NCBI GenBank assembly: GCA_001563915.1
Contig: LKMP01000008.1
Span: forward strand, 1 to 36,536
Origin: Nanohaloarchaea archaeon B1-Br10_U2g21
GTDB taxonomy: Archaea > Nanohalarchaeota > Nanosalinia > Nanosalinales > Nanosalinaceae
Length of the DNA stretch: 36,536 nucleotides
Reading direction: 5' to 3'
In this document: in pieces, positions 341 through 30,386 of the stretch
How positions within the stretch are numbered: position 1 is the first letter of the stretch
Layout: every line of letters begins with the position of its first letter
Translations under genes and position numbers: made by a program
Notes under the pieces: model-generated
What the model saw: the letters and a program-made list of their open reading frames with translations, nothing else
Database searches by the model: none
What the model was told of the DNA's origin: nothing

Positions 341-820
341 ATGGAAAGAGAAGAAATGATGAAGTTTGAGGACGTAATTTCTGATAGAAAGAAAATTTAC
401 AGTAACTTAGAGAACTCTTACGTATTCTCTAAACAAGCCCTAGAACAAGCACCAATAACGGAAGTAGCAGATTTATGGGAAAACGCAGAAGAAAAGACAG
501 AATTTTATATCCGCCTCCTCTCAACAGAAAAAATTTCTGGAGACGTGAAAAGATACTCGGACCTAGCCGATCTCGGTTTTTTCGTGCTAGATTCATTTTA
601 TAGAAATGCTGAAAACTATCTTGAAGCCGAAGAGAGTTTCGATATATTTGCTGATAGAAAAGGAAAAGAATATGATTCTCTATCTGAAGAAATGGAGGAT
701 AGAAGAGGAGAAGACTACGACTTCACTGAATCTACAGAAGAACTTCTTGATTCTATAGAAGAACTTGACGAAGCCTACTGGAAGAACTGGGGTATTGAGA
801 TTTTGGGGGGATGGAATTGA
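341..820 (+). CDS. Hypothetical acidic protein
   Basis: 159-aa ORF, very D/E-rich like the rest of the proteome; overlaps the next ORF by 10 nt; no recognisable motif. Confidence 0.75.
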   Translation: MEREEMMKFEDVISDRKKIYSNLENSYVFSKQALEQAPITEVADLWENAEEKTEFYIRLLSTEKISGDVKRYSDLADLGFFVLDSFYRNAENYLEAEESFDIFADRKGKEYDSLSEEMEDRRGEDYDFTESTEELLDSIEELDEAYWKNWGIEILGGWN

Positions 821-1803
821 CATGGGTAGATGTTGTAAGCAGAGCTAATGAAGAACTAGACGAGATAGGACTGGATTCGTTTTCAGGAGAGGTTATAGAG
901 GCAGATAGGGGTAGAATGGATAGGCCTTTCCTTGTTAAGGATAATTCAGTCTTGGTAAGAGACATGGAGCAAGACTTTGGAATTGCTCTAAGAGATTTAG
1001 CAGCTCACGAAATGACGGCAGACATAATGTCAGACAGAGCAGGATTACCTAGTCCAGATACTCGTACCTCTGCAGACGCTACAGAATTTGTAGAGCTATA
1101 TGGGAAGCTTGATGAGGGAGAATCTTCAGCTTATGCGCCGGGAGATGAATCGCGTAAAAAAGAGAATGTTTGTCTTCTAATGAGGGAAAAAGGAGAAGAG
1201 ATGCGGAGAATACAGGCTATCGCCGATGACGCGTTCAATCAACTTGATTTTGAGTCAAGTAAGATTCTAAGAGAGTATGTTGATGATGATTTTACGGAAG
1301 ATTATTTTGACACTGTACCTGACTTCTGGGGATACTTTGTAGCCGATTTCACAGGAGCCCAGACTAGAAGAAGACATTATGAAGAACATTTAGATGATAT
1401 TGGTAGGTTAATCGAATATGAGGGTACTAATGAGAAGGGTAGAAAAAACTTTTTGGAGCTAAAAGGGAAGATGCCTGAGCTTAGAGAGATTGACATGACT
1501 CGTTTCTATGCTTATGAACTTGCTAAAAAATCTATAGAGATTGAATTCGCTAATATGGTGGATGCAGCAGATTCCGAACTCTTAGCTGCATCAATTTTTT
1601 ACAGAGATGCAGGTCATGCAGGTTTAAATCCTATTTACAATCCTGATGAATACTGTGAAGAAGTTGAAAGTATCGAATACGTTAATGAAGAAGTCTATAA
1701 GCATATTGAGCAAATGGTGTCTGATGCAGTAAGAAATAAACTAGGGGATTCGCGGGACTTAGAAGAGGCCTATAAGGAAACAGTTAGAACACATCTAAAT
1801 TAG
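811..1803 (+). CDS. Hypothetical acidic, probably helical protein
   Basis: 330-aa ORF with host-like composition; only a partial HExx-like segment (LAAHEMTA) lacking the second His. Confidence 0.8.
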   Translation: MELTWVDVVSRANEELDEIGLDSFSGEVIEADRGRMDRPFLVKDNSVLVRDMEQDFGIALRDLAAHEMTADIMSDRAGLPSPDTRTSADATEFVELYGKLDEGESSAYAPGDESRKKENVCLLMREKGEEMRRIQAIADDAFNQLDFESSKILREYVDDDFTEDYFDTVPDFWGYFVADFTGAQTRRRHYEEHLDDIGRLIEYEGTNEKGRKNFLELKGKMPELREIDMTRFYAYELAKKSIEIEFANMVDAADSELLAASIFYRDAGHAGLNPIYNPDEYCEEVESIEYVNEEVYKHIEQMVSDAVRNKLGDSRDLEEAYKETVRTHLN

Positions 1804-1831
1804 ATATTTTTAGAAAGTTGAGGTTGTGGGT

Positions 1832-1963
1832 GCGGGGAGAAAATCCTTTTTTAGGCGACTTTCGTGGTTGGATGTGGAGGTTGTGTGAAAGCCGTCCTCT
1901 TACCTCCAAGTTTTTATAGGGCACATCGGCCCGGAGGTCTTCAGATTCTTAGCTTCTCCCCGC
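1832..1963 (-). ncRNA. Candidate structured non-coding RNA (three-way junction), family unknown
   Basis: GC-rich intergenic island closed by a perfect 10-bp inverted repeat (gcggggagaa 1832-1841 / ttctccccgc 1954-1963) with two internal stems. A G-U wobble and an upstream TTTAAAAA box (2004-2011) favour the minus strand. Confidence 0.5.
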
Positions 1964-2074
1964 GGTGGTGCGGTGTGGTGTATTGTATACTTAGTTAAAT
2001 TGTTTTTTAAATTGTATGCAAGTCTTTATCTATAATTCAACAGTTTAATATTCAGGCCAGTTTAATTTTTCTGT

Positions 2075-5000
2075 GTGAACTGGAAGAAGGTTGTCTGTGG
2101 AGTTCTGCTCGTTTTAATGCTTTCTGGAAGTGTGTTCGCAGAATGGAGTGATGGAGATAAATCACAAAATATTTTCGAAGGCGTAGAAACCCAAGACTCC
2201 GAAAAAGTATACATAGATCCAATTTTAGAATCTGAATTCCACACTGGTATTTCTATTCAGACCAGAGAGACAGTGAAAGTTATCGTGAACTTTGGATCTT
2301 ACGAAGAGGCTGAAGATAGAGAAGATATGCAGGCAGAAGCCTCGAAATCTCAAGAACCTATTATGAATTTAGCAGATAATAATCCGGAAATAGAGGTCAA
2401 GAATCAGTTCTGGATCGCGAATGCGGTGCTTCTTGAAATAGAAAATGATTTTCCACTAGAAAAAATTGCTCAAGTAGGGGGAGTAGAAGAAATACAGGAG
2501 AATGCTGAGGTTTCAACTCTTGAAACTAATGAATTAGGTTCGCAAAGCTCTTCAGCGTCTAAAACGTATGGTCTTAACCAAATAAATACTAGTGAAGTCT
2601 GGGAAGAGTTTGATACAAAAGGAGAGGGTGTAAAAGTAGCAGTTTTAGATACAGGTATAGATTCTGGCCATCAAGATCTCGAACTTTATACAGAGGAAGA
2701 CTCTGATCCTACATACCCGGGAGGATGGGCAGAGTTTGATAATGGAGAGGTAGATGACTCTGAACCCTACGACTGTGGAACGCACGGAACTCACGTCAGC
2801 GGCACAGTAGCAGGGGGGAATGAGTCAGGAGAGAGTATAGGTGTAGCTCCTAATACTAAATTGCTTCATGCAGGTGTCTTAATGCAAGAGGAAGATGGAG
2901 AGTGTACAGGAGACCATTCAGATATTTTGGATGGCATGGAATGGGCGGTTGAAAACAATGCGGATATTATCAGTATGAGCCTTGGGGTCGAAGGTTACTG
3001 GGGGTCTGCTATAGATGCCGTTCGTGGAGCTGAAGAGGAAGGAGTATTAGTCATTGCTGCATCAGGTAATAATGGAGAAGGAACTAGCTTTGCTCCTGCT
3101 AATGTATATGAGTCATTTGCAATAGGCGCAGCAGACAGCGAAGATGATATAGCAAGTTTTTCGAGCGGAGAAAAAGTTGAAGATTCAAACTGGCAAGGCA
3201 CTCCTCCTGAAGATTGGCCGGACCAATATATTGTGCCGGATGTAGTAGCGCCTGGTGTTGGAGTGAAAAGTTCAGTGCCAAACGATAATTATGATTATTT
3301 TGAAGGAACTAGTATGGCTGCACCTCATGTATCAGGAGCTGCAGCGCTAATACAGTCTGCAACTTCTACTTATTTGGATCCTGATGAGTTAAAAGAGTCT
3401 TTTATTGAAACAGCGAGGAAACCTAGCGACTGGAATGAAGAGGATGCTGAAGATGAAATAGACGGCCAAGACACTCGCTACGGAGAAGGTGTAATTGATG
3501 CTCACAGCGCAGTAGAGTATGCTTTCGAAAACTTTGAAAAGCCGCGGTTCGAGATAAGTGAGTTAGAAATAAATCCTGAAGAAATCATTGAAGGAGACTC
3601 TGTTAATGTTACAGGCATTGTTAATAATACAGGAAGCGAAGATAAAGCAGATTTACGTCTTGAAGTTAATCAGGCTGAAGTAGCACAAAAAGACGTAAAA
3701 ACAGTTTTTGAAGACGCTGAAGAGTTTTATTTTGAGGAACAGTTTGATGAACCAGGTTCCTATAATATTTCGGTAAACGGTACGAAATCTGGAAACCTCA
3801 ACGTTTTGAAAGCACCAGAACTTGAAATAAATGAATTCAATTTATCAGAATCAGAAATACTTGAAAATGAGTCTACTCAGGCCACTTTAAACGCAGAAAA
3901 TATTGGCGAGGCGGAAGGAGTATTTAATGTAAATCTTTCTGTAGGAGGGACGGTAGTACAGAACAGCTCTTTGGTACTAGAAGAAGGGGAAAAAGATACA
4001 GTAGAATTTGAAGAAGGGTTCGACAAATGGGGGAGTTATAATATTTCGTCAAATCAGAAATATGAAACACTTCAAGTCTTAAAACCCGGCTCTATAGAAT
4101 TTTTGAACAGTTCTGTAGGGCAAAGAGAGATTGGAAAAGGAGATCAAGCCGAATTTTTCATAGAAGCAAAAAATCCGGGAAATGTTAGCGTAGAAGACAA
4201 TTTTCACTTCAAAATAAACGATAGCTTAGAGGATCAAAAAAATGTTGAAATAGAAAACAATTCTCGTGAAGAATTCAGATTTTCTAGTAAAGAGTTAGAA
4301 GAAAAAGGCAGATATGACTTATCTGTTAATGGTTCTAAATCTCAAGTAATTGACGTTTTGAAACCTGGAGAACTGCAGAATAACGAAATCTTTTTGTCTT
4401 CAGAAGAAGTTGTAGCAGGAGAGAAGGCAAACATAACTAGCACAGTAGAAAATATTGGCGAAGTAACAGATGAGTTCGATGTAGATCTTTTGTTAGATAG
4501 GAACGGAGAAAATCTTGCAAATGAGTCAAAAAAAGTAGAAGTGGATGCAGGTGAAGAAAAAAATGTTACTTTTGAAAAAGCTATTGAAGAACCCGGAAAA
4601 TATACTGCAGAATCTTTGAAGAAGTCAAAAAACTTCACAGTACTAAAAGACGCTGATCTTGGGGTAAAGCAGGCCTCAACAAATGCAAGCAAAATATTTA
4701 CAGGCCAATACCTAGAATTAGAGGCCTTAGTAGGTAATGAAGGGGAGGTAGCAGGAAAAGACGTTTTTAACTTTACTGTGGGCAATGATTCAGTTCTGAA
4801 TAAGTCTGAAGAATTGGATCCTGGAGAAAACATGACGGTATCTCAGAAGTTACAGTTAGAAGACAAAGGTAACTTCACGGCAGCAATAAATGATACTAGT
4901 GCCGGTGAAATCGAGGTTAGTAGGCCTTTTGTTAACATTACTTCTGCTGAGGCAGATTTTTCAGATTCTGGTCTGATAGAAATTGATGCATCTTTGAATA

Positions 5001-6520
5001 ATACTGATCCTGCTTCTACTACGACGATTCTTGAGCCAATGTTTTATGATGTGGAGCAGCCAGAATATGAGTGGACTGCTGAGGAAAGTTTTAATTTGAA
5101 TCCTGAAGAAGAGAAAGATGTTTCTATAGAGTATTATTGGAACATAACAGGAGAATATGAACACTTTTTGAACTCTACAGAACTAGGAAGCTTTGAATTA
5201 GAGCCTTTAGCAGAGTTTCGGGAAATTCGGCCTGAAACAGAAACATTTGAAGAAGGGGAAGAAATAGAGTTTTCAGGCTACGTTGATATTGTAGGAAGCT
5301 TAATAGAAGAAGATACACAGGAGGTGATAGTTGAAGTTGAAGGTGAAGAAGTTTACAGCGATGAAGAGTTGTGGGCAGGCAGAAACGAGTTTGAGTTCGC
5401 TGACTCATTCGATGCAGGAGAATATAGCTGGAAAATTATTTCTAATGTTCACAATTCTACTTTTGAGTCTTCAGAACAGTTTTTTGACATTGAAGAAGTA
5501 GAAGAACAAGACTCTGATTCAGAAAACGGAGAAGTGCCTCCAGACATGTTTGATGAAGATCCAGAATTACAAACTAGCGTTGAAGAGGATGGTGCAGAAG
5601 CCTATAATATCTATGCCTCAGAAGATGAAACAGTTAAACTCAATTTCTCAGGAGGCCCAAGTATAGATTTTGTCGAAATCACTGCAGATGAAGAGTTAGA
5701 AAACTCGAACTTCAGCTTATCTTCAGCAACCACGAATACGGACTACTTGTTAGAATCAGTCTACAATCTGCAAACAGATGCAGAAGCTTCTTTTAGACTT
5801 GAGTTTGCAGCATCAAAAGACTGGGTGGAAGAACATGAATTTGAATCAAGCGAGATATCGCTCCACAACTTAGATTCCGGCGAAGACTTAGAGGCCTCAC
5901 CTATTGGGGAATCTGCAGATAAGTACTACTACGAGGCTTTTACCGAAGAATTTTCTACTCTAGGTATTGGAGTCGATAGATCCTGTCATTCTATGGACTC
6001 TATAAACGCATCTGACGGTGAAGAGTGCCAGACTTTTGATAATGTATGTGACGTTCCGGAAGACTGGGAAGAAGTCTCTACATGCGATAAAAGCGAGGAC
6101 AGAGATTCTGAATCAGATGTTCTAGAGCATTTTGAGAGATTAAAGGAGGAAGATCCTGAGAGTGAGGAGCTAGAACAGGCGAACTATAGTATTGAACAAG
6201 GAGATTTTGATCAGGCCGCAAATGTTCTTGAACAAATGGAAGAGGATAGAGATTCGGGAGTGAGTCCATTGTATGTTGTGGGAGCTGTAATTGCGTTAGG
6301 GTTTGCAAGTGTTGCCTTGTTAATGGGTCATCGTTACTATGCTAGAAAAAAACTTGTGTCAGATTTGGAGGAGTTAACAGAAGTAGTCTCAAATCTTTCC
6401 CATACAGAAAAGCATTTAAGAGCGGCGGAGAGAGTTAGAGAGGCTAATGAGGCAGCAATGCAGGGAGAATGGGATAAAGCAAGGAAGAAGACGTTCAAGG
6501 TAAAAAAACTGTTGAAGTAA
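2075..6520 (+). CDS. Large membrane-anchored subtilisin (S8) surface protease with CARDB/Ig-like repeats
   Basis: Signal peptide, propeptide, catalytic triad motifs VAVLDTG / HGTHVSGT / GTSMAAPHV. These are followed by repeated 'V.N.G...' Ig-like modules, a PGF-pre-PGF-like segment (YYYEAFTEEFSTLGIG), a Cys-rich motif, a C-terminal TM helix and a basic tail. GTG start. Confidence 0.93.
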   Translation: MNWKKVVCGVLLVLMLSGSVFAEWSDGDKSQNIFEGVETQDSEKVYIDPILESEFHTGISIQTRETVKVIVNFGSYEEAEDREDMQAEASKSQEPIMNLADNNPEIEVKNQFWIANAVLLEIENDFPLEKIAQVGGVEEIQENAEVSTLETNELGSQSSSASKTYGLNQINTSEVWEEFDTKGEGVKVAVLDTGIDSGHQDLELYTEEDSDPTYPGGWAEFDNGEVDDSEPYDCGTHGTHVSGTVAGGNESGESIGVAPNTKLLHAGVLMQEEDGECTGDHSDILDGMEWAVENNADIISMSLGVEGYWGSAIDAVRGAEEEGVLVIAASGNNGEGTSFAPANVYESFAIGAADSEDDIASFSSGEKVEDSNWQGTPPEDWPDQYIVPDVVAPGVGVKSSVPNDNYDYFEGTSMAAPHVSGAAALIQSATSTYLDPDELKESFIETARKPSDWNEEDAEDEIDGQDTRYGEGVIDAHSAVEYAFENFEKPRFEISELEINPEEIIEGDSVNVTGIVNNTGSEDKADLRLEVNQAEVAQKDVKTVFEDAEEFYFEEQFDEPGSYNISVNGTKSGNLNVLKAPELEINEFNLSESEILENESTQATLNAENIGEAEGVFNVNLSVGGTVVQNSSLVLEEGEKDTVEFEEGFDKWGSYNISSNQKYETLQVLKPGSIEFLNSSVGQREIGKGDQAEFFIEAKNPGNVSVEDNFHFKINDSLEDQKNVEIENNSREEFRFSSKELEEKGRYDLSVNGSKSQVIDVLKPGELQNNEIFLSSEEVVAGEKANITSTVENIGEVTDEFDVDLLLDRNGENLANESKKVEVDAGEEKNVTFEKAIEEPGKYTAESLKKSKNFTVLKDADLGVKQASTNASKIFTGQYLELEALVGNEGEVAGKDVFNFTVGNDSVLNKSEELDPGENMTVSQKLQLEDKGNFTAAINDTSAGEIEVSRPFVNITSAEADFSDSGLIEIDASLNNTDPASTTTILEPMFYDVEQPEYEWTAEESFNLNPEEEKDVSIEYYWNITGEYEHFLNSTELGSFELEPLAEFREIRPETETFEEGEEIEFSGYVDIVGSLIEEDTQEVIVEVEGEEVYSDEELWAGRNEFEFADSFDAGEYSWKIISNVHNSTFESSEQFFDIEEVEEQDSDSENGEVPPDMFDEDPELQTSVEEDGAEAYNIYASEDETVKLNFSGGPSIDFVEITADEELENSNFSLSSATTNTDYLLESVYNLQTDAEASFRLEFAASKDWVEEHEFESSEISLHNLDSGEDLEASPIGESADKYYYEAFTEEFSTLGIGVDRSCHSMDSINASDGEECQTFDNVCDVPEDWEEVSTCDKSEDRDSESDVLEHFERLKEEDPESEELEQANYSIEQGDFDQAANVLEQMEEDRDSGVSPLYVVGAVIALGFASVALLMGHRYYARKKLVSDLEELTEVVSNLSHTEKHLRAAERVREANEAAMQGEWDKARKKTFKVKKLLK

Positions 6521-25054: not shown

Positions 25055-26356
25055 TTAGCATTCTTCACCCCAGTTCGGCTGTTTATCATCCTCGCCTTCA
25101 AAACCAGCTCCGCTGTCAAAATCAGAAGGTTTTTCTTCAATCTGCTCAACACACCAATCACTGATATCCTGATCAAAACTGCTTGCACCACGAAACATTC
25201 GCCACATAGACTCCACATTTGAGGTGTCCCAGTCGCTGATATCCTGATCAAAACTGCTTGCACCATCGAACATTCTCTGCATATTTGTAACACTTTCAGT
25301 TTCCCAGTCGCTGATATCCTGATCAAAATTACTGGCATCAGTAAACATTCGCCTCATAGTTGTTACTTCTGACGTGTCCCAATCCTCCATTCCCTCTCCT
25401 CTAAAATCAGTTCTTTCAAACATATCGGACATGCTATTCACGCTGCTAGTGTCCCATCCGCTTACATCGCCATCGAAACTAGATGCATCCTCAAATGCAT
25501 CGCTAAAAGAAGAAACTTCAGAAGTGTCAGGTATGTCCGAGTAGTTGTCTTCCATATTTTCCGCATCATCAAAAGCGCCATTAAAGCTTTGGTATTTTAT
25601 ATCTCCCCATTGTTCTATGGTTTTGACTTTTAGTTCGTCTCCTTCTCTTAGTCTTGGGTGGGGGTATAATCCTCTGATTCTTATTTCGTGGAGTCCTGGT
25701 TCTTTGAATTCGATTATGTGGTTGTTGGTTAGTGGGTCTATTATTTCTTCATTTCCTTCTCCGTCTAGGTTTTCCCATTCTAATTGGTATTCGAAGTTGC
25801 CGCCGCCCGTGCCTAGTTCGAATTCGTTGTCTTCTGTTTCTCCTTCTTTTGTGGAGTTTACTTGGAAAATTAGTGGTTCCATATCAAAAAATTCGGAACC
25901 TTCAATGATTTCGAAGTTTCCGGAAATTGTGCCGGTGTTTTCTAAGTTTTCTAGGTTGCCTTGATTATAGTTTAGTGTGATGTCTAAATTGTTTGCTGAG
26001 TTTCCGTCTTCTATTTGTAGGAATGTGGCTGTATTAGTGTCGGTTACGTCTAGTGTTGCTTGTTCTCCGCTTGGTTGCCATATTGCTTCTTTTTGTCCGT
26101 CTGTTACTTTTACTTTGTTCAGTTCTATTGTTTCTGCACCACCATTCCTTAGCACTAGCTGTAGTTGGTCTTCAACGTTCAAACCTACGTCATCTACTAG
26201 CACACTGTCTCCGTCGAATCCTGAAGCGCTTTGCGGGCTTTCACTCTGGGTTATAGAGAAAATGGCTCCTCCTACTACTGCTACTACGAGGAGCATCCAA
26301 CCATATGTCATTAGGTATTCGATGGCTGATTGGCCTTTGAGTCTTTCTACTTTCAC
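25055..26356 (-). CDS. Class III signal (pilin-like) protein fused to BspA-type/DUF285 repeats
   Basis: KG|QSAIEYLMTYGWMLLVVAVVGG N-terminus, IEQWG motif, 25-aa repeats MF..ASSFDQDISDWDTS.V; GTG start. Confidence 0.88.
   Translation of the reverse strand: MKVERLKGQSAIEYLMTYGWMLLVVAVVGGAIFSITQSESPQSASGFDGDSVLVDDVGLNVEDQLQLVLRNGGAETIELNKVKVTDGQKEAIWQPSGEQATLDVTDTNTATFLQIEDGNSANNLDITLNYNQGNLENLENTGTISGNFEIIEGSEFFDMEPLIFQVNSTKEGETEDNEFELGTGGGNFEYQLEWENLDGEGNEEIIDPLTNNHIIEFKEPGLHEIRIRGLYPHPRLREGDELKVKTIEQWGDIKYQSFNGAFDDAENMEDNYSDIPDTSEVSSFSDAFEDASSFDGDVSGWDTSSVNSMSDMFERTDFRGEGMEDWDTSEVTTMRRMFTDASNFDQDISDWETESVTNMQRMFDGASSFDQDISDWDTSNVESMWRMFRGASSFDQDISDWCVEQIEEKPSDFDSGAGFEGEDDKQPNWGEEC
25161..25340. 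repeat. 75-bp-period coding tandem repeat (DUF285 units)
   Basis: ctgatatcctgatcaaaa recurs at 25161, 25236 and 25311; the first two copies share 30 identical nt. Confidence 0.9.
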
Positions 26357-29162: not shown

Positions 29163-30386
29163 ATGAGAGTCATTTTTTTGCTGACAGCTATAGTAATATT
29201 ATTGGCGCCAGCCATGGCAAATATTTCGCCAGAGATTAAAGAGAAACTAGATGAGCGAGATGATGACGAAGTTATTGAAGTCTTAGTACCTTTCGACACA
29301 GAAATAAATGATTCTGAAGGTTTAACTGAATCAAATTTTTCAACATCTGGTGCAGAAATAAAGGAAGAGTATGAAAAATTTGACACATTTTTAATGAATG
29401 TTACGATATCAGAAGTTGAAAAAATTTCTGATAAAGAGTTTATAGACCGAATAGAACCAGATTATGAGATTAAAGCGTTGTTAGATCAGTCTTCTATACA
29501 AATTGGTTCAAGGATCTCGCATGAAACTGGTGTAACAGGAAAAAATGTGAGCATTGCGGTAATGGATTCAGGAATATCTGAACATGATAATCTAGAGTTA
29601 AAGGGACAGAGAGATTTCACTGGGGAAGGCATAGGCGATGAAAACGGTCATGGGACTCATGTGGCCGGAATTATAGGCTCAACACATCGAGAATATCGAG
29701 GTGTTTCTTACGAATCAGATATCTATGATGTAAAAGTCCTAAATAGTGAAGGTAAGGGAAGAGGCTCTAATATGCTTAGAGGCCTAGACTATGTTATTCG
29801 TAATGATATGGATGTTGCTGTAATGAGCTTAGGAACCACTGTGGATGAATGTGGGGGCAAGGACGTTCTCTCCAGAGCAGTGAGGGAAGCAGTAAGAAGA
29901 GGTACTACTATAACAGCTTCAGCAGGTAATTCGGGCCCACAAAATAACACTTTGACTGCTCCGGGGTGTTCTGAAAGAGTTGTAACTGTGGGGTCGATAG
30001 ACAAGTCTGATAGCATGGCTACTTACTCGAGTAGAGGCCCTACAAGTGATGGGAGAGTAAAACCTGATATTGTGGCTCCGGGATCTTCTATAATTTCTAC
30101 TGGAAAGAATAATGATTTTGTCTCAATGTCAGGCACAAGTATGGCTGCGCCACAGGCGGCAGGACAGGCGGCCCTAATACTATCTGAAAGTCCTGATAAA
30201 GATCCTGCAGAAGTAAAGAAGACGATTATTAACAGTGCTGATGATTTGGGATATCCTGAGAATGCACAAGGCGCAGGCAGAATTAATGTGCCGCACTCTT
30301 TGAATGCCACAGCAGAAGTACAGCATATTGAGGAAAGATCCAGTTTTTTGAATCGGGTATGGGCGTGGTTTACAGGATTATTCTAG
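29163..30386 (+). CDS. Secreted subtilisin-like serine protease (S8)
   Basis: Signal peptide, propeptide, IAVMDSG / HGTHVAG / GTSMAAP triad, SSRGP..DGRVKPDIVAPG. Confidence 0.95.
   Translation: MRVIFLLTAIVILLAPAMANISPEIKEKLDERDDDEVIEVLVPFDTEINDSEGLTESNFSTSGAEIKEEYEKFDTFLMNVTISEVEKISDKEFIDRIEPDYEIKALLDQSSIQIGSRISHETGVTGKNVSIAVMDSGISEHDNLELKGQRDFTGEGIGDENGHGTHVAGIIGSTHREYRGVSYESDIYDVKVLNSEGKGRGSNMLRGLDYVIRNDMDVAVMSLGTTVDECGGKDVLSRAVREAVRRGTTITASAGNSGPQNNTLTAPGCSERVVTVGSIDKSDSMATYSSRGPTSDGRVKPDIVAPGSSIISTGKNNDFVSMSGTSMAAPQAAGQAALILSESPDKDPAEVKKTIINSADDLGYPENAQGAGRINVPHSLNATAEVQHIEERSSFLNRVWAWFTGLF

Follow-up and report, generated by a model that had tools for sequence, protein, structure and literature searches.

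Between an ORF at 811-1803 (+) and a subtilase gene at 2075-6520 (+) lies a spacer of 271 nt, and a GC-rich set of inverted repeats inside this spacer raises the question of whether it is the gene of a structured RNA, and of which kind. The stretch analysed here (36,536 nt; "the window") is contig C8 of a genome (G000) of 815,638 bp in 24 contigs, estimated to be 92% complete. An initial annotation, made from the letters of the sequence, had proposed an undescribed structured ncRNA on the minus strand, and all of the features it listed were recovered from the sequence position by position. Our best reading of the sequence is that the minus strand from about 1812 to 1981 is a single-copy gene of a structured RNA of about 170 nt, which belongs to no described family and would be transcribed independently. 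That this is a real structured ncRNA gene we hold to be highly probable.

The strand was addressed by folding the segment 1815-1985 in both directions. The minus-strand fold reaches -46.6 kcal/mol (z = -4.05) and is equalled by none of 200 dinucleotide shuffles, whereas the plus-strand fold has a z-score of -0.32 and is equalled by 69 of 200 shuffles, so that the proposed minus-strand placement is borne out. It had also been remarked that an A-C mismatch on the plus strand becomes a G-U pair on the minus strand. Ten cells of the structural alignment described below are indeed G-U pairs, and the strand of the RNA is fixed as minus because these ten cells would be A-C mismatches on the other strand.

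Inverted repeats that flank a GC-rich island (53% G+C in the RNA element vs 39% in the genome) could also be produced without any functional RNA, by a DNA palindrome or repeat (an origin box, a MITE or a REP element) or by a spacer that is GC-rich by chance. We give this explanation only a slight probability, below that of any functional alternative discussed below except a housekeeping RNA. The strand-asymmetric G-U pairs and z-scores speak against it, as do the compensatory changes that keep RNA pairs, and conservation is confined to a block that has a promoter-like box at fixed spacing. The element is also single-copy in its own genome, both by BLAST (E ≤ 0.001) and by covariance model, and a regex search for paralogues with the same tail-stem-tail layout returned the RNA's own locus as the sole match. 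Dispersed copies, which the initial annotation had named as the mark of a MITE- or REP-like repeat, were therefore looked for and the element was found once, so it is not a repeat of this kind. No match to the element was obtained in phage records and plasmids by BLAST or in viral contigs by a pattern scan. The rest of the window consists of ordinary chromosomal genes, and no integrase was found in it.

On the minus strand the first reading had described a closing stem and two arms around a three-way junction. A further helix, P2 (1841-1846/1943-1948), was absent from that reading; with P2 included, the model is a GC-rich stalk of P1 and P2 that carries a three-way junction, from which P3 and P4 (arms B and A of that reading) extend. 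Read 5' to 3', the helices begin with the 5' strand of P1 (GCGGGGAGAA; 1954-1963), placed by the MFE fold and the alignment. The closing stem P1 spans 1832-1841/1954-1963, and 9 of its pairs are used by the MFE fold, while the tenth pair (A-U, 1841/1954) competes with the first pair of P2. The 5' strand of P2 follows at 1943-1948 (alignment), and then the ACCUCC strand of the lower P3 helix at 1933-1938, which pairs with 1902-1907 and is invariant in 4 of 4 sequences. The upper P3 helix GGGC/GCCC with its hexaloop CGAUGU occupies 1919-1932 (stem 1919-1922/1929-1932). It is followed by an A-rich bulge of 11 nt (1908-1918), which is conserved and predicted to be unpaired, and by the 3' strand of the lower P3 helix (GGAGGU) together with J3/4 (AAG) at 1899-1907, inside an invariant block UGGAGGUAAGAGGA. 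The P4 arm, called arm A in the initial annotation, covers 1853-1898, with a stem at 1853-1863/1887-1898 and a 23-nt loop that contains a spare ACCUCC. The junction strand J4/2 (AAAAAA; 1847-1852, invariant in 4 of 4) then leads to the stretch 1832-1846, in which fold and alignment place the 3' strands of P2 (1841-1846) and P1 (1832-1840/41). The internal loop between P1 and P2 has no 3' side in the window.

Homologues were sought first by BLAST. Among 61 related genomes, one significant match was obtained, in a genome of the same genus (G004; E = 5.1e-8). Metagenome and genome contigs were next searched with a 19-nt pattern taken from the shared block, which returned 12 metagenome and 8 genome loci. 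A single-sequence covariance model was applied to these loci, and the true homologues among them are only L043, L047 and L053. L053 is a genome contig, and its RNA and that of G004 align identically to the model, while L047 and L043 are metagenome contigs. The title of the L053 contig is 'Candidatus Nanohaloarchaea archaeon', which fits the earlier guess of a DPANN origin. Counting the window, the distinct sequences number four and fall into two deep lineages, one of them the window and the other formed by three near-identical sequences (G004/L053, L047 and L043).

Conservation of the structure was called on a model-fitted alignment of these four sequences with 36 pairs and 138 cells, and 97.8% of the 138 cells form standard pairs in this alignment, which is itself fitted to the structure. 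Both partners were replaced in 7 of the 36 pairs: P1, P2 and P4 contribute two such pairs each, and upper P3 one. None of 500 column shuffles reached the observed number of paired cells, the number of both-sides changes or the covariation score, and the count of further pair types was reached by 13 of 500. When the partners were slid by 1-3 columns, pairing dropped to 33-64%. RNAalifold on an independent MAFFT alignment gave the same helices with 6 compensated pairs. Conservation in relatives with compensatory changes, which the first reading had put forward as a check, is thus found on both alignments. The covariation comes from few events, because there are only two deep lineages and three of the sequences are near-identical.

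The helices differ in how they vary. In P1, both members of each of the two outer pairs differ in the homologues (GC,CG to CG,UA), and the inner seven pairs are invariant. In P2, two of six pairs are changed on both sides and two on one side, and every cell pairs; this helix also covaries among the three close sequences. The lower P3 helix ACCUCC/GGAGGU is invariant in all 6 pairs, with a pairing probability of at least 0.92 in all four RNAs. One pair of upper P3 is G-C in the window and C-G in the three homologues, and the A-rich bulge is conserved but not identical (UAUAAAAACUU in the window, UAAAAAACAU in the homologues). Generally, the parts invariant across the four sequences are inner P1, lower P3, the block around J3/4, the P4 base AGG/CCU and J4/2, while the P1/P2 internal loop, P2, distal P4 and the P4 loop are variable. 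The P4 loop is not conserved, being 23 nt in the window and 8 nt in the homologues, in which distal P4 is a shorter replacement helix that itself covaries (CCCUC/GAGGG vs CCUUC/GAAGG). The shared architecture is the MFE fold in the window and in G004. In L047 and L043 the region of P2 and P4 is arranged differently in the MFE fold, and both helices are supported there by the comparative consensus.

Upstream of the RNA, the initial annotation had pointed to a TATA-like box about 25 nt before a CA-rich leader. The box (TTTAAAAA; 2004-2011, minus strand), a putative promoter of the RNA gene, is confirmed at 22 nt before the conserved block and the start of the C/A-rich leader. This 8-mer occurs only 3 times in 73,072 positions (both strands of the window), and its TTAAAAA core is kept at a fixed distance, 22-23 nt before the conserved block, in all 4 loci. 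In archaeal promoters such a spacing is expected between the TATA box and the start site, and because of it transcription would start near A1981, giving a 5' tail of 18 nt. A structured ncRNA gene is recognized by its transcript as well as by features of the sequence, and of the latter the locus shows a conserved fold with covariation, a bias to one strand and a TATA-like box kept in the homologues.

Both ends of the RNA are predicted to be exposed. The 5' tail (1964-1981, minus strand) is single-stranded and C/A-rich with an unpaired probability of about 0.9 or more, and the words CCACACC..ACC(A/U)CC in it are common to the window and the homologues. The 3' tail (ACCCACAACCUCAACUUUCU; 1812-1831, minus strand) is likewise single-stranded, and its predicted end is next to a weak T-tract; ACCCAC..AACCU is common to the homologues, and conservation ends about 17 nt past P1, near this T-tract. 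In all 4 RNAs the two tails are G-poor, C/A-rich and predicted by partition function to be unpaired. The leader, the arm A loop and the trailer had been described as C/A-only tracts: they are C/A-rich as described, with one G in the leader and a few U in the arm A loop and the trailer, so the word "only" does not hold. Inside the block AACCCACACC...CCAACCUUA, identity among the three close homologues is 94-97%, and outside it L053 and the other two close loci share 64% upstream and 53-58% downstream, with many gaps.

The next question is whether the RNA belongs to a known family. With gathering scores over the whole window, no Rfam family matches the element. In the segment 1780-2080 at E ≤ 10, Rfam gave only CRISPR-DR50, MIR7533 and SCARNA3 (E 1.7-8.9), which were treated as noise. 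This outcome supports the proposal of an undescribed structured ncRNA on the minus strand.

As another possibility, the initial annotation had named a housekeeping RNA in highly derived form, and 5S, SRP and RNase P RNA and tRNA come into question. The RNA recalls 5S rRNA in size (~120-130 nt), in a closing helix formed by the ends, in the three-way junction and in an A-containing bulge in one arm; it differs from 5S rRNA in the extra stalk helix P2 and the long single-stranded tails. This reading fails because the 5S, RNase P and SRP RNAs occur elsewhere in the genome, above the Rfam cut-offs (5S at G000:C22:18069-18184, 70.6 bits; RNase P at G000:C23:7200-7507, 115.9 bits; SRP at G000:C2:5795-6075, 98.6 bits), and we consider it extremely improbable. 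At the element itself, 5S rRNA (RF00001, gathering score 38 bits) has no match in 1780-2080 even at E ≤ 10. Archaeal SRP RNA has a length of ~300 nt and helix 8 motifs, and its family (RF01857) gives no Rfam match at the element. For archaeal RNase P RNA, which carries the CR-I-like word GAGGAAAGUCC, there is neither an Rfam match (RF00373) nor a CR-I-like word within 2 mismatches in the four RNAs. The 3 tRNAs of the window that ARAGORN and Rfam detect lie elsewhere, with intron-bearing tRNAs included in the test, and the T-loop word is present in 0 of 4 RNAs. The absence of tRNA, 5S, SRP and RNase P identity, asserted earlier from conserved motifs, is in this way upheld by Rfam, ARAGORN and word searches.

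Guide RNAs of the modification machinery were rejected as well. Box C/D sRNAs carry RUGAUGA (C box) close to their 5' end and CUGA (D box) close to the 3' end; here a C box within 1 mismatch is found in 0 of 4 RNAs, and CUGA in 1 of 4, where it is internal. In a box H/ACA sRNA the hairpin contains a pseudouridylation pocket with two sides, and an ACA box follows just 3' of the lower stem. In the window the P1/P2 internal loop is one-sided, and of the four RNAs the window's alone has an ACA shortly after P1, the conserved 3' tails of the other three having none.

What might such an RNA do? It is probably a new stand-alone small RNA that acts in trans. In the working model, the RNA would be transcribed from its own promoter-like box with a predicted start near A1981 and a predicted end in the 3' tail region, and its rigid conserved core would make it stable and probably serve proteins as a binding platform. 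The tails (~18-20 nt), which are exposed, and the spare anti-Shine-Dalgarno-like ACCUCC would pair with G-rich, SD-like mRNA sites, and this target pairing would modulate the translation or stability of the mRNAs. We put forward this trans-acting base-pairing mechanism tentatively, as somewhat short of an even chance.

Each of the 4 RNAs contains one unpaired ACCUCC beyond the P3 copy, in the P4 loop (window) or in the 5' tail (the others). The chance expectation of such a spare word is about 0.12 and 0.11 per lineage in a test that was chosen after the data had been seen, and the finding is for these reasons suggestive only. In the 16S rRNA of G004, GAUCACCUCC stands at about the 3' end and contains the word ACCUCC, and SD-like words are enriched upstream of long ORFs in the RNA's own genome (for GAGGT, 5.8% vs 1.1% background). 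The 16S rRNA gene of G004 is partial and its 23S gene was not found; in the RNA's own assembly, neither a 16S nor a 23S rRNA gene was detected (5S is present). The missing 16S and 23S genes are likely a loss in assembly or binning. The bacterial C-rich anti-Shine-Dalgarno sRNAs RsaE/RoxS expose C-rich words complementary to ribosome-binding sites, and the role proposed for the spare ACCUCC and the tails is modelled on this likeness. The differences are that RsaE/RoxS come from another domain of life and have another fold, and that here the position of the motif is not conserved and the targets are not enriched.

Target searches weigh against the trans base-pairing mechanism. Exact complements of the tails (9-12 nt) in the genome are not above those of shuffled tails, for example 20 vs 36.2 for the 5' tail at k = 9, and the 3' tail has 101 exact complements vs 124.5 for shuffled tails. 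Exact complements of the non-conserved P4 loop show a modest excess (32 vs 11.6 at k = 10), which we attribute to purine-rich coding composition. When the tails were paired with the partial 16S rRNA of G004, the duplexes were no better than shuffled, save weakly for the G004 3' tail (2 of 30 shuffles), so no clear complementarity to this rRNA is seen. The position of the spare ACCUCC differs between the lineages, which also counts against the mechanism, and the invariant helices and A-rich junction suit a protein- or ligand-binding RNA equally.

The same observations bear on a second reading, in which the RNA is the subunit or scaffold of a lineage-specific RNP, or a protein-sequestering RNA, without any target pairing, and P1, P3, the A-rich bulge, the junction and the tails are protein-binding sites. 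Seven of nine P1 pairs and six of six lower-P3 pairs never vary, unlike those of P2 and distal P4, which covary. J4/2 and the A-rich bulge are conserved too, and the lack of enriched tail complements would be expected for such an RNA. On the other side, no candidate partner protein is conserved nearby, the subtilase being the only syntenic gene, and the flanking ORFs are without a Pfam or NCBIfam family, bar a weak HisKA match in one locus. With four sequences, invariance may also just mean short divergence. We judge this RNP reading rather unlikely, at a probability that is still appreciable.

The initial annotation had further suggested a switch, in which a loop segment of arm A competes with arm B for pairing. 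The 7-nt complementarity between 1875-1881 (P4 loop) and 1902-1908 does exist. The switch itself finds no support: in the window P3 holds these bases with p ≥ 0.94 and leaves the alternative pairing at p < 0.02 (p ≤ 0.05 in the other RNAs), and the competing segment is absent from the three homologues, whose arm A loop has 8 nt.

These results also concern the idea of a ligand-sensing (riboswitch-like) or catalytic RNA, the compact junction of which would bind a small molecule or self-cleave. It is improbable in our view. Its attraction lies in the conserved junction strands and A-rich bulge, in the two arms of similar length in the homologues, and in the fact that in 3 of 4 loci a conserved sequence or a co-oriented ORF begins ~60-85 nt downstream. 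However, the downstream genes are unrelated (a weak HisKA-like ORF vs a 134-aa ORF) and the gene in the window is convergent; together with the alternative pairing at p ≤ 0.05, this led us to reject a riboswitch or cis leader. No alternative fold is populated, and loop-loop pairing is not conserved: the P3-P4 loop-loop complementarity is 6 bp in the window, with 4.7% of shuffles as good, and the kissing pairing in the homologues is 3 bp, not above chance. The purine riboswitch is a tuning-fork three-way-junction aptamer, and this RNA resembles it in the stalk, the two side-by-side arms of similar length and the conserved junction strands; it differs in not being the 5' leader of a conserved gene, in its non-conserved loop-loop pairing and in giving no Rfam match. 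The hammerhead core is CUGANGA ... GAAA around a three-way junction. Here the hammerhead-like CUGAAGA and GAAA are present in 1 of 4 RNAs (window only), and neither a ribozyme nor a riboswitch family of Rfam matches.

A different role could follow from the neighbouring gene. This gene, divergent from the RNA gene, encodes a subtilase (S8) of 1481 aa (2075-6520, plus strand; Pfam Peptidase_S8, E = 2.3e-56), and its best matches adjoin the RNA in L053, L047 and L043, that is, in 4 of 4 loci with the window included. A TATA-like sequence TTTAATAT at 2044-2051 lies before the GTG start of the subtilase (2075), and its end 23 nt upstream of this GTG suggests that the subtilase mRNA is leaderless. 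The RNA could be viewed as a cis element, a divergent promoter-associated transcript whose synthesis or fold would adjust the subtilase promoter that lies back to back with its own. In all 4 loci the subtilase and the RNA gene diverge, whereas the opposite side of the RNA gene is occupied by different genes; the two TATA-like boxes of the window (2004-2011 and 2044-2051) are separated by 32 nt. These four loci belong to one genus-level group, however, and the synteny may be plain inheritance. Moreover, transcriptional interference needs neither a conserved three-way junction nor conserved tails. The closest subtilase in another genus (G031) is a long match with 50% identity; its upstream spacer is AT-rich and has 176 nt, and the RNA element is absent from it. 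A cis role thus appears to be a long shot.

Two further observations concern the subtilase protein. Its N-terminus is signal-like (KK followed by hydrophobic residues). Residues 1239-1296 form a borderline PGF-pre-PGF domain (28.9 bits vs a cut-off of 28), on account of which the protein is probably a surface-anchored protease. On the other side of the RNA gene and convergent with it, two overlapping ORFs of 159 aa and 330 aa (341-1803, plus strand) have no Pfam or NCBIfam family, and neither was found beside the RNA in the other three loci.

In order to see how far the RNA extends, covariance models were run over wider sets of genomes. Model R1 found the RNA in 2 of 50 family genomes, and model R2 gave convincing matches in 2 of 70 order genomes; the same 70 genomes make up the phylum set, and among them R2 found nothing outside the genus. 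Applied with laxer filters to 39 genomes, R2 gave weak matches (E 0.14-6.8). Four of these (L071, L077, L072 and L074) were re-aligned and dismissed, since they are without P3 or most of the core, and L072 and L074 lie inside ORFs. A metagenome locus with an R1 match of E = 0.4 (L048, 2483-2564, plus strand) is without P1 and P2, has a different context and was judged a chance look-alike. In L048 two hairpins around the 19-nt motif mimic P3 and P4, and the region has few long ORFs. For the other three genomes of the genus (G001-G003), completeness is 68-82%, and their matches to the neighbouring subtilase are limited to shorter ones in the S8 domain; the absence of the RNA from them says little. 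The RNA appears to be restricted to one genus-level group.

Stand-alone archaeal intergenic sRNAs, as in Methanosarcina and Haloferax, have their own TATA-type promoter, a length of 100-250 nt, a lineage-restricted distribution and a presumed trans action. The RNA studied here is like them in being an apparently independent gene with a TATA-type promoter, in size, in lineage restriction and in presumed trans action, and unlike them in sharing no sequence or Rfam relation, in a three-way-junction core whose conservation is unusual, and in its pair of conserved G-poor tails. The non-coding RNAs of DPANN archaea have hardly been described, and in genomes as reduced as theirs few dispensable genes can be expected; a conserved, elaborately folded RNA with a promoter-like box and no family is therefore a concrete experimental target.

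A full-text literature search found no description of this RNA. In Ca. Nanohalococcus occultus, five highly expressed ncRNAs are reported, four of them unassigned (PMC10266531), and by eye none is like the RNA studied here. As described there, SVXNc_nc0003 to nc0005 are organism-specific RNAs of 115-155 nt from the same phylum that belong to no known family, and in a comparison by eye they bear no resemblance to this RNA; they show that unassigned ncRNAs exist and are expressed in nanohaloarchaea (PMC10266531). STRG.4577.1 is reported as a conserved 266-nt nanohaloarchaeal intergenic sRNA (PMC7002113), which may or may not be related to this RNA.

Our verdict is that the locus holds a genuine-looking, undescribed, genus-restricted structured small RNA gene, for which the working functional model is weak. 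The RNA could expose a lineage-specific regulatory or RNP function, possibly tied to the adjoining surface protease, and its value is limited by the narrow distribution, that is, one genus-level group and four sequences. We also attach a small probability to a further reading, in which the RNA would be either the founding member of a new compactly folded archaeal RNA class (a predicted core with the A-rich bulge or junction packed on homopurine/homopyrimidine helices) that binds a ligand or protein, or a symbiont effector whose G-free tails would pair with GC-rich transcripts of a haloarchaeal host after transfer.

Elsewhere in the window, some coding regions drew attention. A second, shorter subtilase of 407 aa is encoded at 29163-30386 (plus strand), and a 433-aa DUF285-repeat protein at 25055-26356 (minus strand). 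For a genome of ~0.8 Mb it is notable that the segment 14703-18476 (minus strand) contains a cluster that looks like a citryl-CoA or split ATP-citrate lyase system; its members are a citrate-synthase C-terminal-domain protein (233 aa), a CoA-binding/CoA-ligase protein (295 aa), a HAD hydrolase and an ATP-grasp + citrate-binding protein (377 aa).
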